From NCBI GenBank assembly GCA_016933055.1, contig JAFGBS010000009.1, forward strand, positions 630,001 to 662,000: DNA of 32,000 nucleotides, written 5' to 3'. The notes beneath the pieces were generated by a model. It was not told the origin of the DNA. It was given only the letters and a program-made list of their open reading frames with translations, and did not search any database. The position numbers and the translations under genes are program-made. Positions within the stretch are counted from its first letter, which is position 1. Every line of letters begins with the position of its first letter. This DNA is from Promethearchaeota archaeon (GTDB lineage Archaea > Asgardarchaeota > Lokiarchaeia > Sigyniarchaeales > Promethearchaeaceae). Of the stretch, positions 3-6,789 are shown one piece after another.

Positions 3-551
3 AATTTTGATACTCGAAATGTCACCAGTTTGGAACTTTCTGATCCAGATGATTACAAGGCTGAAGCGTGGTTCTCGTCCGAAGCTAAGGTTACTGGTGG
101 GCGCATCATCACTCGAATCGCCGTATCGGGGAAGAATCAGAGTTTAGAGATTCGCGTGTGGTGTAACGATCCTGGACAATTAACAGGATTTCTGGCTAAA
201 ATCATTGAATTACTCTTCCTGGAAATTAATATCGTTAGGAAGGTAAAAGCAGAAGAACGTCAGCGCACCTTAGATGTAATGTCTATAACACAGAACCTAA
301 TTACTGCTAGTGATTTTTGTGCTGTTAGATATAAAGCTAAGGATATATTATTAAAATTAGAAGATACGCATTATCGTATGTCACGTGTAGTGGGTAATAC
401 AGATCCTACACTTGCTAAGATTCAGTATTGGATAGAAAAACTTCAGAAATATGACGAGGAAGAGAAAATCCAAGAGAAAGAAGCTGATTCGTTAATGAGT
501 GATATTGAAGGCTTCCAAAACACCCTAGCTCGAAGTTTAGCACCCACATAA
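3..551 (+). CDS. C-terminal part of a 5'-truncated hypothetical protein; possible coatomer/adaptin appendage platform-like domain followed by a helical bundle
   Basis: The frame is open from the window edge (NFDTRNVTSL precedes the TTG at 30), so the real start is upstream. The segment WFSSEAKVTGGRIITRIAVS...LEIRVWCNDPGQLTGFLAKI resembles platform subdomains, and the rest is amphipathic helices. The CDS is well supported; the domain call is tentative. Confidence 0.6.
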   Translation, partial: NFDTRNVTSLELSDPDDYKAEAWFSSEAKVTGGRIITRIAVSGKNQSLEIRVWCNDPGQLTGFLAKIIELLFLEINIVRKVKAEERQRTLDVMSITQNLITASDFCAVRYKAKDILLKLEDTHYRMSRVVGNTDPTLAKIQYWIEKLQKYDEEEKIQEKEADSLMSDIEGFQNTLARSLAPT

Positions 552-2245: not shown

Positions 2246-3250
2246 TTATAGTTTCTTTTTCTTCAAGAAAATTGCTAAAGGGACCCCTATTACTAGAAAT
2301 ACGCCAATACCGATTCCAATATAAATCCATAATTCGAGATTAACTAGTCTGGGTTCTTCGGGACCTTGAGGATTCTCGGTACTTTCTTGTGCGATCATGG
2401 TGAACATCCACCACATTGCATAAGTTTTCATATTAGCGTTCAATGGTTGGGAATGAGCAGAAGGACAAGAAAACCAATCCAATCCTTCAGTGTGGCTATT
2501 TTGCCATTCTATAGCCCAATTACCTCCATCATAATCACAGTCATCTTGAACATTCTTATCACCGAAATATTTTCCATCGGGATCATAACTTTCAATATCA
2601 GCAAAATCAAATAGAACTCTATTATTGGACGAACAATATGAACGGATTTGTTCATTTCTGATATGAAGATTTCCGGTTAAACCAGTTCCGTCGACATGAC
2701 CAGTCATATATACAAATGTTACATTGGGATAATCAATCTCTAATTCTGACATCAAACTTAGATATGTGTCGATGTTGGATTCACTAGCTGAGGAAACTTG
2801 CCCACACCAACTACCCATTAACACGTTTACGTCAGGATTATCATTTAAGTAGATTCGCGCTCGGTTCTTCCAAGTGGTCCAATCGGGATTTCCTAAATCC
2901 CCGTCAAAACAGTAGTCATCCAAATCGAGACTATTACCATCACCGTTTTCAGTCCAGTTATACAATTCTCCTTTAAATTCAATCATTTCACCCCTATTAC
3001 CAGTTAATTGACTTCCATGGCTTGTATGGAAATATCCTACATGAAGAATGTCTTTTGCATATTGAACCTTTGTCGAATTAATTAAGTCCAAGCGAACTTG
3101 GTTTATAATCGTATGATCTGCAATAATGGAGGTGGATATAATTGACGGATTTGGGTATTGTTCAATGGATGCAAACTGAGGAAGAGTGTACGGTGCACAA
3201 ACACAAAAAACTATTATACTAAAATTCAGATAAAATAATTTATGTACCAT
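2246..3250 (-). CDS. Membrane-anchored extracellular protein, putative SGNH-like/alpha-beta hydrolase domain
   Basis: Hydrophobic N-terminus; core with HTSHG, SWCGQ, YMTGH and FDFADIESYDPDG; C-terminal TM helix (LWIYIGIGIGVFLVIGVPLAIFL) followed by KKKKL. Confidence 0.7.
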   Translation of the reverse strand: MVHKLFYLNFSIIVFCVCAPYTLPQFASIEQYPNPSIISTSIIADHTIINQVRLDLINSTKVQYAKDILHVGYFHTSHGSQLTGNRGEMIEFKGELYNWTENGDGNSLDLDDYCFDGDLGNPDWTTWKNRARIYLNDNPDVNVLMGSWCGQVSSASESNIDTYLSLMSELEIDYPNVTFVYMTGHVDGTGLTGNLHIRNEQIRSYCSSNNRVLFDFADIESYDPDGKYFGDKNVQDDCDYDGGNWAIEWQNSHTEGLDWFSCPSAHSQPLNANMKTYAMWWMFTMIAQESTENPQGPEEPRLVNLELWIYIGIGIGVFLVIGVPLAIFLKKKKL

Positions 3251-3339: not shown

Positions 3340-3843
3340 TTACATTTGTGTTTCGACTTTTTTTGCAATTCGATTTCGAGAAATCGTCATGATCAGTAGC
3401 ATCAGTCCCAAAATTACTCCACCTGCAACATAAACCCAAATATTCGTAGGTGCACTTGCGGGGATTATTGTCATCCAAACTTCATCAGAAATTGTATTTC
3501 CTAATCCATCATTTACCACGATAGTAATATTGTAAATCTTTGGTTCCAGATCTGTTGGTGGGTTAATTATTATCGTTCCCTCCCCCCCCTCCAAATTCCA
3601 TGTAAAAGCAGAAATGAATTTGACCCCATCTCTGAACACATCATAGGTTGGATTGCTACCTACCGAATCTATTGTAACAACCCATGTTATGCTGATTTCA
3701 TCTCCTGCTTGTACAGAAAAATCATCCGGATGGGTAATACTATCGAATCCTTGTGCGTGAACAATTCCAGACATACAAATAAAAAGTACTACGATATAAA
3801 CTAAATACAATTTAGACTTGATTCTTTTCAAATTCGAATTCAC
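3340..3843 (-). CDS. Cell-surface protein: signal peptide, single Ig-like beta-sandwich, C-terminal TM anchor
   Basis: Signal-like LYLVYIVVLFICMSGIVHA; Ig-like pattern HPDD..V.AG..I.W...YDVFRDG..W...YNITIVVNDGLGN..SDEVWMTI; TM helix IWVYVAGGVILGLMLLIMTI followed by basic residues. Confidence 0.8.
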   Translation of the reverse strand: MNSNLKRIKSKLYLVYIVVLFICMSGIVHAQGFDSITHPDDFSVQAGDEISITWVVTIDSVGSNPTYDVFRDGVKFISAFTWNLEGGEGTIIINPPTDLEPKIYNITIVVNDGLGNTISDEVWMTIIPASAPTNIWVYVAGGVILGLMLLIMTISRNRIAKKVETQM

Positions 3844-4033: not shown

Positions 4034-5452
4034 TTGAATCCAAGTGTTGGGAAACTGGTATATGATGAAGAATTATACGAACCCATTCATGGGATGGGAA
4101 ATATGGTCATCAATTATCATTTTGAATTGAATCCTGATCGATCAACTCTCAAAAATTTTGAAGAGTCAAGAAAAGATCTAGAGGATTTTTTCGAATGGTT
4201 TGAAAAAAAACAACAAGAAATGGAAAAAAAGTATTACAGTGCTAATGGAGAAGCGAAGATTGCTGCTGCGAAAGAATTGATACGCTTTCTTTTGGATGCT
4301 TATGTGAAGTGGGGGGAGATTCAAACGCCCAGTAGCGGTAAATGGAATGGATTTTATACCATTACTGCAAGGTTGAAAGCAATAAATTTCAATATAGACC
4401 ATTCCAGCGATTTATCCATGGTTGTTCACAAATCCTCGAATTCGAAAGGGCGGTCTAATGTAACCGGTACAGTCACCAATGGAATAAGTAAAGTTGATGC
4501 AGGATCCATGTTGAAAGGAAAATTGCGATATTTGGGAGAGATGACTGGTTATATATCTGGGGGCAAATTATCCCTTATCGTCACAGAATGCATTCAAGAT
4601 TTGGATCTTAAAATTCTCGGAGGATTAGCTTCTGGAACGATGACTGCATTCAACAAAAACTCCAGGGAAGGTATATCTGGTTTAAAAAAATACAAGTTGT
4701 TGGTTAAGGTCGGGGAAAAGCAATTACCGATGAAAATAGAACTTATAAAATGTGGTGAACAAGTCCGGCAATTTGATTTTGAAGGATACGAAGAATTCGA
4801 ATTCGATGAACTATTACGTAAATATTTCACATGGTTAGTTCATACTACTGACGAAGTTAGGACTGCACAGTTTTCCTCGTGCAGTCTTCAAGAGAAAATG
4901 GAATTAGCCATGGATATGTTTACGGAATTATTGAATTTATTGGCGAAAGGGCAATCGCTTGGAATACCTCAAGGGGTTTTGCAGGAATTGAATCTGATTA
5001 CTAATACTGTGGATTCTTTGTATGATAAATGGTTTCGGATGTGGTTTATTGCGGGACGAACCTTCTGGGAAGAAAAAGTTAACTCAAGCCCATCAATTGC
5101 AAATTATAAAAGTCGTTTTTATTACTTTTTGAGCGCTGCGGAATTAAATGTAACTAGTATTGTGTCGAAACAACCTTTTCGAGATTTCAAAATCACCTTG
5201 CCCGGAGAAGCTATTGATGCGGCATTCATTGACTATTATAATATTGCTCTCCAGGATTGGCTGGAAAGAGTAACCGAGAATCCAAAGATAGTGAGAGATG
5301 CCGTGGGGTGGGTAGTGAAATTAAGCGAATTAATATTTACCAAGGTCATATCTGAATCCGCAGGTAAACGGATAGGGTTGATTCCATTACCTCCCACGGC
5401 ATATTATCAATTATATAAAGCAGCGGGGATAAAGGGGGTAAAAGAAAGATGA
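4034..5452 (+). CDS. Hypothetical protein (472 aa), helical / beta-rich / helical, no recognised family
   Basis: Long ORF with GTGAGG 4 nt before the TTG; ATGA overlap with the next gene; no signal peptide or TM segment. Confidence 0.8.
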   Translation: MNPSVGKLVYDEELYEPIHGMGNMVINYHFELNPDRSTLKNFEESRKDLEDFFEWFEKKQQEMEKKYYSANGEAKIAAAKELIRFLLDAYVKWGEIQTPSSGKWNGFYTITARLKAINFNIDHSSDLSMVVHKSSNSKGRSNVTGTVTNGISKVDAGSMLKGKLRYLGEMTGYISGGKLSLIVTECIQDLDLKILGGLASGTMTAFNKNSREGISGLKKYKLLVKVGEKQLPMKIELIKCGEQVRQFDFEGYEEFEFDELLRKYFTWLVHTTDEVRTAQFSSCSLQEKMELAMDMFTELLNLLAKGQSLGIPQGVLQELNLITNTVDSLYDKWFRMWFIAGRTFWEEKVNSSPSIANYKSRFYYFLSAAELNVTSIVSKQPFRDFKITLPGEAIDAAFIDYYNIALQDWLERVTENPKIVRDAVGWVVKLSELIFTKVISESAGKRIGLIPLPPTAYYQLYKAAGIKGVKER

Positions 5453-6789
5453 ACCACGATCAGCGCTATCGTAAATCTACCGTAGATCACTTACCAGAAT
5501 GGAAAATCCCCCAATTTCCCGATGTTCCTTTAGCGGACACAAATTATACCACAACGGTTGAATTGGAACCTCAAGGATACACCTATAAAAACCCTATATC
5601 CCAGAAAGAAATTCTGGATACTGAAGTGAAAATAGTCAAAATGGAACTGGAAAAAAACAAATCCGTGAAGATTCGGGTTGGGATAGAAGAATCGGCTCGA
5701 ATTTCTCACAGTGATGCGGTCCCTTGCGTCATGGTGATCGGTGAGGACTTTCATCCATTTGATTTTTGGGCATCCTTTTTTAGCTCAATTGGTTTAATGG
5801 GATATCCTTTGGAATTTGCAATGGGAACGGCTAATCAACCTGCGGAAATTGCATTTACTCCACAGTGCAATAAACTCGTTCGAGTGGCATTCTGGGTACT
5901 ACGAGGTCCGTTGAAAACCGCTTCTGAAGAAAAATCTTTCGGAATGAAAGCTTCAGATGTTAATAAATTCTTGGAGATTGTGCGAAATCAACCCTTTTAC
6001 CTCGCATGGCTAGGGCACAATTATGATATCCAAGAGATGCAATCAAAATGGAAGAACAATGACCAGTCTGATTGGAAAACTGCTCCTCTTAACTGTTCGA
6101 TCTTACCGGGGGTTGAAGGAACTTCAAGTTATAGAAATTTGTTACCTTCTCTTTTGGAAAAGTATGGGATTAATCCCATGGCTTTATGTGGATCTAATGC
6201 AGATCAAAAACGTTGGTTAGCCATAACTGAACGCATGTCCTCACTATCGGAAACCATCAACAAAACAATCGAAATGGTAAAAACCCATGCACTAAATATA
6301 AACGAGAACCCACTGTTTAAAATCCGATTGCAGAGCTATTTGAAACATCCCTCACTTTATATTGACTTGCTAAAGAATCATCGTAAATACATCAATTGGT
6401 CAAAAAGTGAAGTTCACGCTTCCTTTATCATGATGGAAATCGCTCAAGCAAGTTCCACGCTAGAAATATTAGAGAGTGAAGTTTCAGTTGTGTTAGCAGA
6501 TTTCCTCACTCATCTCGCCGCTTTTGATGCTATAATTACTACAAAAAATGGACTGGTCACTGCATCAACCTCGAAAAACTTCCAATTGACCCTCTGGGAG
6601 AATGATTATTGGTCTGTGCTAGAAGACGCAATGGATACTCACGAACTCGGACAGAACCTTCTTCTTATCAGCGAAGCTCAACGAGAACCTGTGCTTGAAT
6701 GTGATTATGTGATGGGTGCCGTGTCCCTTCTAGACGAAAACGGTACGATCATAGGGTGGTTATTAATGAAAATAGTCATAGGGGGATGA
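5449..6789 (+). CDS. Hypothetical protein (446 aa); possible N-terminal PPC-like jelly-roll and C-terminal Cache/PDC-like domain
   Basis: Long ORF coupled to the upstream gene. The C-terminus AIITTKNGLVTAST...YW...ISE...AVSLLDENGTIIGWL matches the Cache-like pattern by eye. Confidence 0.75.
   Translation: MNHDQRYRKSTVDHLPEWKIPQFPDVPLADTNYTTTVELEPQGYTYKNPISQKEILDTEVKIVKMELEKNKSVKIRVGIEESARISHSDAVPCVMVIGEDFHPFDFWASFFSSIGLMGYPLEFAMGTANQPAEIAFTPQCNKLVRVAFWVLRGPLKTASEEKSFGMKASDVNKFLEIVRNQPFYLAWLGHNYDIQEMQSKWKNNDQSDWKTAPLNCSILPGVEGTSSYRNLLPSLLEKYGINPMALCGSNADQKRWLAITERMSSLSETINKTIEMVKTHALNINENPLFKIRLQSYLKHPSLYIDLLKNHRKYINWSKSEVHASFIMMEIAQASSTLEILESEVSVVLADFLTHLAAFDAIITTKNGLVTASTSKNFQLTLWENDYWSVLEDAMDTHELGQNLLLISEAQREPVLECDYVMGAVSLLDENGTIIGWLLMKIVIGG

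Follow-up and report, generated by a model that had tools for sequence, protein, structure and literature searches.

A putative ESCRT-linked adaptor of the Asgard Vps28-C/appendage/UFL1-like fusion family in a Promethearchaeota archaeon

Introduction

Among the hallmarks of eukaryotic trafficking and ubiquitin-like systems are the ears of adaptins, Vps28 and the UFL1/DDRGK1 scaffold. In Asgard archaea, fusions have been described that combine a Vps28 C-terminal domain (Vps28-C) with the C-terminal region of adaptin/COPI subunits and with winged helices of the E3 UFM1-ligase-1/PCI type (Liu et al., 2020 preprint; Liu et al., Nature 2021, Fig. 5a), and such fusions also appear in a later survey (Makarova et al., 2024, Fig. 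6B). They have been predicted to serve ubiquitin-dependent membrane remodelling or to act as an ESCRT-0 analogue (Liu et al.; Makarova et al., 2024). Alpha-adaptin C and beta2-appendage domains have likewise been listed in Asgard archaea (Eme et al., 2023). That a single conserved Asgard protein combines these three eukaryotic hallmarks is relevant to the assembly of the eukaryotic endomembrane toolkit, a point that has already been published.

The DNA analysed here, referred to as the window, is a stretch of 32,000 nucleotides (contig C17:630001-662000) from a 3.76-Mb Promethearchaeota assembly that is 91% complete. A gene at its left edge, flagged in an initial annotation of the window, is a member of this already described Asgard family and encodes a putative ESCRT-linked adaptor. 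The overall reading that we consider likely is that of a zinc/winged-helix/appendage/Vps28-C protein acting as a soluble ESCRT-linked adaptor or hub. To the published fusion the present analysis adds Z-scores for the individual domains, the position of the DDRGK1/UFL1 junction within the second winged helix, a distribution at the level of the order, and the observation that this gene carries the only Vps28-C domain found in its genome.

The gene and its domain order

An open reading frame on the plus strand (window 3-551), open at its 5' end, encodes 182 residues and contains both strings quoted in the initial annotation, each of them exactly: FSSEAKVTGGRIITRIAVS at window 72-128 and LEIRVWCNDPGQLTGFLAKI at window 144-203. 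That annotation had placed further N-terminal domains upstream of the window, and retrieval of the upstream DNA bore this out. The frame forms the last 182 codons of a gene for 784 residues whose start lies 1.8 kb before the window; downstream of its stop codon, purH starts after 75 nt, at position 626. Since a full-length search returned 274 homologues at 45-87% identity, most of them about 785-790 residues long and the best mostly of that length with the same Pfam set, the frame is judged by its relatives to belong to a real gene. These homologues are labelled "PCI domain-containing" or "DUF2042".

The features are as follows; residue r starts at window base 3r-1806, and the window opens at residue 603.

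L002:13197-15551 (contig C17:628197-630551), plus strand: the whole gene for 784 residues
L002:13197-13598, plus strand, upstream of the window: zinc module, residues 1-134
L002:13599-14486, plus strand, upstream of the window: five winged helices, residues 135-430
L002:14553-14861, plus strand, upstream of the window: Ig-like sandwich, residues 453-555
L002:14865, plus strand, upstream of the window: start of the platform, residue 557
Window 3-551, plus strand: 3' part of the gene, codons 603-784 and the stop (ORF translation)
Window 3-245, plus strand: C-terminal two-thirds of the platform (residues 603-683 of 557-683), a four-strand beta-meander and packing helix in the AF2 model
Window 72-128, plus strand: first string of the initial annotation, residues 626-644; two platform strands with the near-invariant K631 of the 'AKVTG' motif
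Window 144-203, plus strand: second string, residues 650-669; last platform strand and first part of the long helix, carrying the conserved Q..TGFLA motif
Window 255-542, plus strand: four-helix bundle assigned to the Vps28 C-terminal domain, residues 687-782 (Pfam PF03997, 2j9w_B and the profile of alignment A1)
Window 549-551, plus strand: stop codon of the gene

The product is a cytoplasmic, multidomain Asgard protein in which the zinc module (1-134) is followed by the five winged helices (135-430), the sandwich (453-555), the platform (557-683) and Vps28-C (687-782).

Two further regions of the window lack Pfam families. Two overlapping frames of 472 and 446 residues (window 4034-6789) match none at E<=0.001. 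On the minus strand, the frames at 2246-3250 and 3340-3843 have no Pfam match, and each contains a hydrophobic C-terminal segment.

The appendage

The AF2 model of residues 440-784 (mean pLDDT 93.9) consists of three parts. A beta-sandwich (model 16-115, residues 455-554, within a domain at model 14-116, residues 453-555) is followed by an alpha/beta domain (model 120-217) with the order beta-alpha-beta-alpha-beta-beta-beta-beta, and then by an unbroken 51-residue helix (220-270) that leads into three further helices (275-342).

The flagged segment had been annotated as an adaptin/COPI-type platform, and residues 557-683 do adopt this fold. On a DALI-scale alignment, the platform (model 118-244) matches the AP-4 beta appendage 2mj7, which comprises a platform only, with Z 13.6 and an rmsd of 2.7 Å over 118 of 141 residues. 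In an exhaustive search, independent of Foldseek, 2mj7 was the best of 48,161 PDB chains for the platform region, the next unrelated fold reaching Z 9.9. The GAE domain that the initial annotation had envisaged upstream is also present, as an Ig-like/GAE-type sandwich directly preceding the platform. This sandwich gives Z 12-13.6 to many Ig-like domains, 10.2 to the GGA2 GAE domain (3mnm) and 9.9 to the gamma2-adaptin ear (2ymt).

Sandwich and platform together match the appendages of AP2 alpha (3hs8), COPI (9qpq_H) and beta2-adaptin (1e42) with Z 13.0-13.1 over 201-221 residues. The rmsd is 6.7-9.4 Å for these three and 6.7-9.8 Å over the two-domain fits as a whole, which indicates that the angle between sandwich and platform differs from that in solved ears. 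Appendages also head the Foldseek search of the PDB (E 3e-11 to 1e-8), with COPI 9qpq_H (E 2.9e-11) and beta2-adaptin 1e42 (1e-10) at the top, accompanied by gamma-COP (1pzd, 1r4x) and alpha-adaptin (2vj0, 1b9k), each alignment spanning about 235 columns.

Conservation was assessed in an alignment, A1, of query residues 440-784 and 63 related regions (64 members), drawn from an exhaustive representative search (711 clusters, E<=1e-3) and from the full-length family search. Across these 64 diverse carriers of the module, the most conserved platform positions are K631 and Q661/T663/G664/F665/L666/A667, all of which fall within the two strings of the initial annotation. Pfam gives sub-threshold signals for the sandwich only, namely GAE_BBS1 in 26, Alpha_adaptinC2 in 14 and Coatamer_beta_C in 3 of the 64 members. 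None of the Pfam platform families (Alpha_adaptin_C, B2-adapt-app_C, Coatomer_b_Cpla, COP-gamma_platf) was matched by the window frame in HMMER at E<=10, a setting at which the HMMER filters discard most matches above E of about 0.1. The C-terminal region of the query matched no Pfam platform family at E<=1, and no such family is among the 25 most often matched by the members of A1, out of 56 matched altogether. The initial annotation had also aligned the segment residue by residue with the beta-COP platform, for which HMMER gives no support. The likeness to adaptin and COPI platforms is one of fold only.

The sandwich-platform module also occurs in many other architectures, of 285-2560 residues, with TPR, Ig, PCI or zinc-ribbon domains. 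Three more carriers are encoded in the same genome. The first (L004:1201-2100, contig C28) is a 299-residue frame with PCI and appendage domains and has an in-frame TAA inside the match region. The second (L005:973-2391, C17:294894-296312) encodes a 472-residue protein with no Pfam match and lies about 10 kb from a Snf7 gene. The third (L006:373-1767, C36) is a SNAP/TPR protein with a TRAPPC13_C-like Ig domain.

The Vps28 C-terminal bundle

A helical tail of about 100 residues, taken for a hairpin, had been described after the two strings. The helical length stands; the hairpin gives way to a four-helix bundle in the model, the first helix of which is continuous with the last helix of the platform. 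Pfam PF03997 (VPS28) scores 36.7 bits on residues 683-780, above its cut-off of 24.5 (E 4.7e-9), the match being limited to profile positions 87-188. The A1 profile recovers the four Vps28 C-terminal domains of the PDB at E 0.006-0.026. By fold, the bundle (model 248-343) matches the Vps28 C-terminal domain 2j9w_B with Z 14.4 and an rmsd of 1.8 Å over 96 of 99 residues. On bare fold there is a tie, since in the exhaustive PDB search the bundle also matches bundles of the HPt type (CheA P1, Z 12.4), and the Vps28 assignment is therefore carried by the sequence profile. Judged by that profile, the tail represents Vps28-C. An HPt reading of the bundle was considered and rejected: other members of the family do not share its sole histidine (in 'DTHYR'), and adjacency to a kinase is not conserved either.

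The NCBIfam model NF045535 ('Sel_Asgard, putative selenocysteine system protein', 195 positions) matches residues 587-769 of the protein (P0001) at E 7e-11, below its cut-off. The match spans platform and Vps28-C bundle (in-window part 3-503), so the NCBIfam family looks like a stand-alone platform plus Vps28-C protein. Its name probably reflects gene context only.

The zinc module and the winged-helix array

In a model of residues 1-450 (pLDDT 88.6), a Cys/His-rich region (1-134) is followed by five winged helices of the PCI type, wH1-wH5 (residues 135-190, 193-251, 252-311, 312-370 and 371-430). The Cys/His-rich region comprises an AN1-like zinc finger and two zinc ribbons. An AN1-like pattern is formed by the invariant C3, C6, C15, C18, C23, H26 and C35 and the near-invariant H38, the zf-AN1 model itself matching weakly (E 0.008, 6 of 20 members), and the region contains two further Cys clusters. 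No N-terminal membrane-anchor helix is predicted in this model, the first 134 residues being taken up by the zinc module.

Three Pfam families exceed their cut-offs in this half of the protein: DDRGK (PF09756; residues 134-219, 39.5 bits), E3_UFM1_ligase (PF09743; residues 224-431, 51.8 bits) and PCI. Against the human DDRGK1-UFL1 chimera 8b9x, the array gives a Foldseek E-value of 5e-13 (TM 0.67), and as one rigid body it matches 8b9x_B with Z 14.8 and an rmsd of 3.1 Å over 242 of 255 residues. In ribosome-bound E3 complexes, UFL1 29-247 aligns to model residues 222-431, and the part aligned to DDRGK1 204-304 has its end at model residue 220. The array is the single-chain equivalent of the eukaryotic DDRGK1-UFL1 array. 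In eukaryotes, this array is split over two proteins that together restore a "composite" winged helix (Peter et al., 2022). The ends of the alignments, at 219-220 for DDRGK and 222-224 for UFL1, place the eukaryotic split point inside wH2 (193-251), which is intact in the archaeal protein.

This arrangement raises the idea that the archaeal protein represents the undivided ancestor of the UFM1 E3 scaffold, that DDRGK1 and UFL1 arose by fission inside wH2, and that the ancestral task was membrane sorting linked to ubiquitin or a ubiquitin-like protein rather than ribosome UFMylation. Such a fission would explain why DDRGK1 and UFL1 need to re-form a composite winged helix, and the ancestral array would then have shared its protein with an ear of the adaptin type and a Vps28-C bundle that docks on ESCRT-II. 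We hold this proposal as tentative and rather unlikely. In the literature searched, DDRGK1/UFL1 and Asgard archaea come together only in Picchianti et al. (2023), who trace both proteins to Asgard archaea; the single-chain or fission reading of the junction was not found stated there or elsewhere in that literature.

An alternative would make the array the core of the protein, which would then be chiefly a scaffold E3 of the UFL1/DDRGK1 type, a single-chain ancestor of the UFM1 ligase in which wH1-wH3 activate E2~Ubl and the appendage and Vps28-C serve only for targeting. The two above-threshold Pfam matches, collinear and with their junction in wH2, and the rigid-body fit to 8b9x with its coinciding ends agree with this idea, as does the composition of the eukaryotic minimal ligase (WH1', composite WH and WH1), all three elements of which are present here in one chain. 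Ubiquitin and E2 genes occur in the genome, and the Asgard origin of UFL1 and DDRGK1 given by Picchianti et al. points the same way, although these authors also suggest a UFM1-independent role. Against a UFM1 ligase, the Pfam models for Ufm1 and UFC1 have no match in the 91%-complete genome, a weak objection in that the UFC1 model matched no control genome either, and divergent Asgard Ufm1 homologues that may escape Pfam have been reported (Koestlbacher et al.). We regard a role chiefly as scaffold E3 as quite unlikely; it is moreover compatible with the reading as an ESCRT-linked adaptor.

Coat and regulator readings

The initial annotation had proposed a prokaryotic proto-coat or BBSome-like subunit, built from beta-propeller, GAE, platform and helical domains and working with a small GTPase. 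The appendage fold on which this was based is real, and the order of sandwich, platform and helices is indeed that of BBS2, BBS7 and BBS9. These three are among the Foldseek matches (E 1e-7 to 1e-5) and were also recovered by structural alignment, BBS9 (6vbu_9) with E 1e-7 and Z 12.2 over 233 residues, and the weak GAE_BBS1 matches in the carriers of the module fall in with them. The helical part is another matter: a BBSome-type identity was not upheld, as the tail scores above the Pfam cut-off for Vps28 and matches 2j9w_B. The global fits to BBS proteins have an rmsd of about 21 Å. Where a beta-propeller had been anticipated upstream, zinc fingers and the five UFL1/DDRGK1-like winged helices were found instead, and neither Pfam nor the N-terminal model gives a beta-propeller, solenoid or coiled coil there. 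GTPase and longin genes, suggested as neighbours, are absent within about 15 kb upstream and 12 kb downstream, and likewise beside the orthologues in five relatives. Taken together, the Vps28-C tail, the lack of propeller or solenoid and the lack of a GTPase or longin neighbour argue that the protein is neither a proto-coat nor a subunit of a BBSome; its place is in the published Asgard Vps28-C/appendage/UFL1-like fusion family. The BBSome reading is largely refuted by the N-terminal architecture, and we consider it highly improbable.

That the protein is a DNA-binding regulator (Lrp/MarR/ArsR, as named in several annotations) or an HPt partner of an upstream histidine kinase is barely credible: many weak HTH matches in Pfam, the JGI names, a PAS histidine kinase on the same strand some 150 nt upstream and the Z of 10-12.4 to CheA P1 and other HPt bundles would suit it, but the winged helices are of the PCI type and, taken as a rigid array, find their best match in UFL1/DDRGK1, and the kinase is adjacent in none of the five relatives examined.

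Distribution and genome context

In a sample of 151 genomes of the phylum, 24 of the 27 further members of the window's order carry the form of about 790 residues, and none of those from other orders does. Outside the order, the Vps28-C profile matches small proteins only in the same sample. Some homologues bear NCBI submitter labels (such as Thor-, Hod- and Hermodarchaeota) that disagree with this sample, and the sample was relied on.

In five relatives (45-47% identity), the gene lies in shared synteny, in the order His_biosynth-like, DsbD_2, the gene of about 790 residues, an RHH regulator and a PpiC rotamase. A wider view of the relatives (L010, L012-L016) adds GT87 glycosyltransferases before the His_biosynth-like gene and, beyond PpiC, HD, Fer4_5 and aCPSF1 genes. 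The conserved downstream neighbour, of 138 residues, is no more than a regulator of the RHH/CopG type. In the genome of the window this synteny is lost, and the neighbours are the PAS histidine kinase and purH. The kinase (PAS-HisKA-HATPase; L002:11463-13040, C17:626463-628040) has this position here and not in the relatives.

Elsewhere, the genome encodes a Vps22-like EAP30 protein, Vps25 (on C27) adjoining Vps4, two Snf7 proteins, two ubiquitins and at least two E2s (C16:94717 and C22:160065). With both Pfam and a family-specific profile, the gene for 784 residues was the only carrier of Vps28-C found. A predicted complex of the genome's Vps22-like protein with the Vps28-C domain scored 0.19 (mark 0.32), a value that weighs neither way on binding. 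Within the region L009:6039-9811 (C16:35039-38811), the only Vps22-like EAP30 gene (240 residues; C16:37253-37924) comes immediately after an Arf-like small GTPase that has an N-terminal extension of about 130 residues. This pair is preceded by a weak Yip1-like membrane protein and followed, on the other strand, by a DsbD_2 membrane protein; in the relatives, DsbD_2 also has the conserved place upstream of the gene of about 790 residues.

A model of function

Eukaryotic Vps28-C docks to ESCRT-II, an established property of ESCRT-I, and adaptin ears are peptide-binding hubs. By analogy, the Vps28-C bundle may dock the archaeal protein onto ESCRT-II/III in the way that Vps28-C of eukaryotic ESCRT-I does. 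As the genome yielded no second Vps28-C domain, such docking would bypass canonical ESCRT-I. The appendage would recruit clients with short peptide motifs, as adaptin ears do, and the winged-helix array together with the zinc module might act as a scaffold on which a ubiquitin-type E2/Ubl, or some other large partner, assembles. Reasoning from these parallels, we regard the coupling of clients with such motifs to ESCRT-II/III as the most likely role of the protein. It could thereby act as an ESCRT-0/I-like cargo selector, as has been proposed for such proteins (Makarova et al.). For Asgard ESCRT components, an interaction of Vps28/Vps23 with Vps22 has been reported from yeast two-hybrid assays (Hatano et al., 2022). 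It is the adaptor function, and not the identity of the domains, that we infer by analogy. No ESCRT or ubiquitin genes adjoin the gene here or its orthologues in the five relatives, and because of this lack of linkage the mechanism is kept at moderate confidence.

Comparison with known systems

The ears of AP-2 alpha and beta2, AP-4 beta and COPI beta and gamma resemble the archaeal protein in having an alpha/beta platform after an Ig-like sandwich. The archaeal appendage differs from them in sequence (8-14% identity, no Pfam platform match) and in the angle between its subdomains. Instead of a hinge to an alpha-solenoid trunk, a zinc module and five winged helices occupy the N-terminus, and the last helix of the platform continues straight into another domain.

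With the C-terminal domains of eukaryotic Vps28 (2j9w, 2j9u, 2g3k), that next domain has in common a four-helix bundle, 18-20% identity and a Pfam score above cut-off. Eukaryotic Vps28 also has an N-terminal core/steadiness-box half, which builds the ESCRT-I headpiece and binds Vps23; this half is absent here and a platform precedes the bundle instead.

UFL1-UFBP1/DDRGK1 complexes (8b9x, 8c0d, 8ohd, 8qfc) contain the same tandem PCI-like winged helices in the same rigid geometry. In the archaeal protein these lie in one polypeptide rather than two, with an intact wH2 in the position of the composite winged helix, and there is no transmembrane anchor and no UFL1 C-terminal region. BBS2, BBS7 and BBS9 show the same succession of GAE-like sandwich, platform and helical region; propeller and coiled coil are missing from the archaeal protein, the global fit is poor, and the helical part falls by its profile into the Vps28 family.

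The closest counterparts are the Asgard fusions of Liu et al. and Makarova et al. They have the same domain set, the gene described here is one of their members, and nothing essential sets it apart from them.
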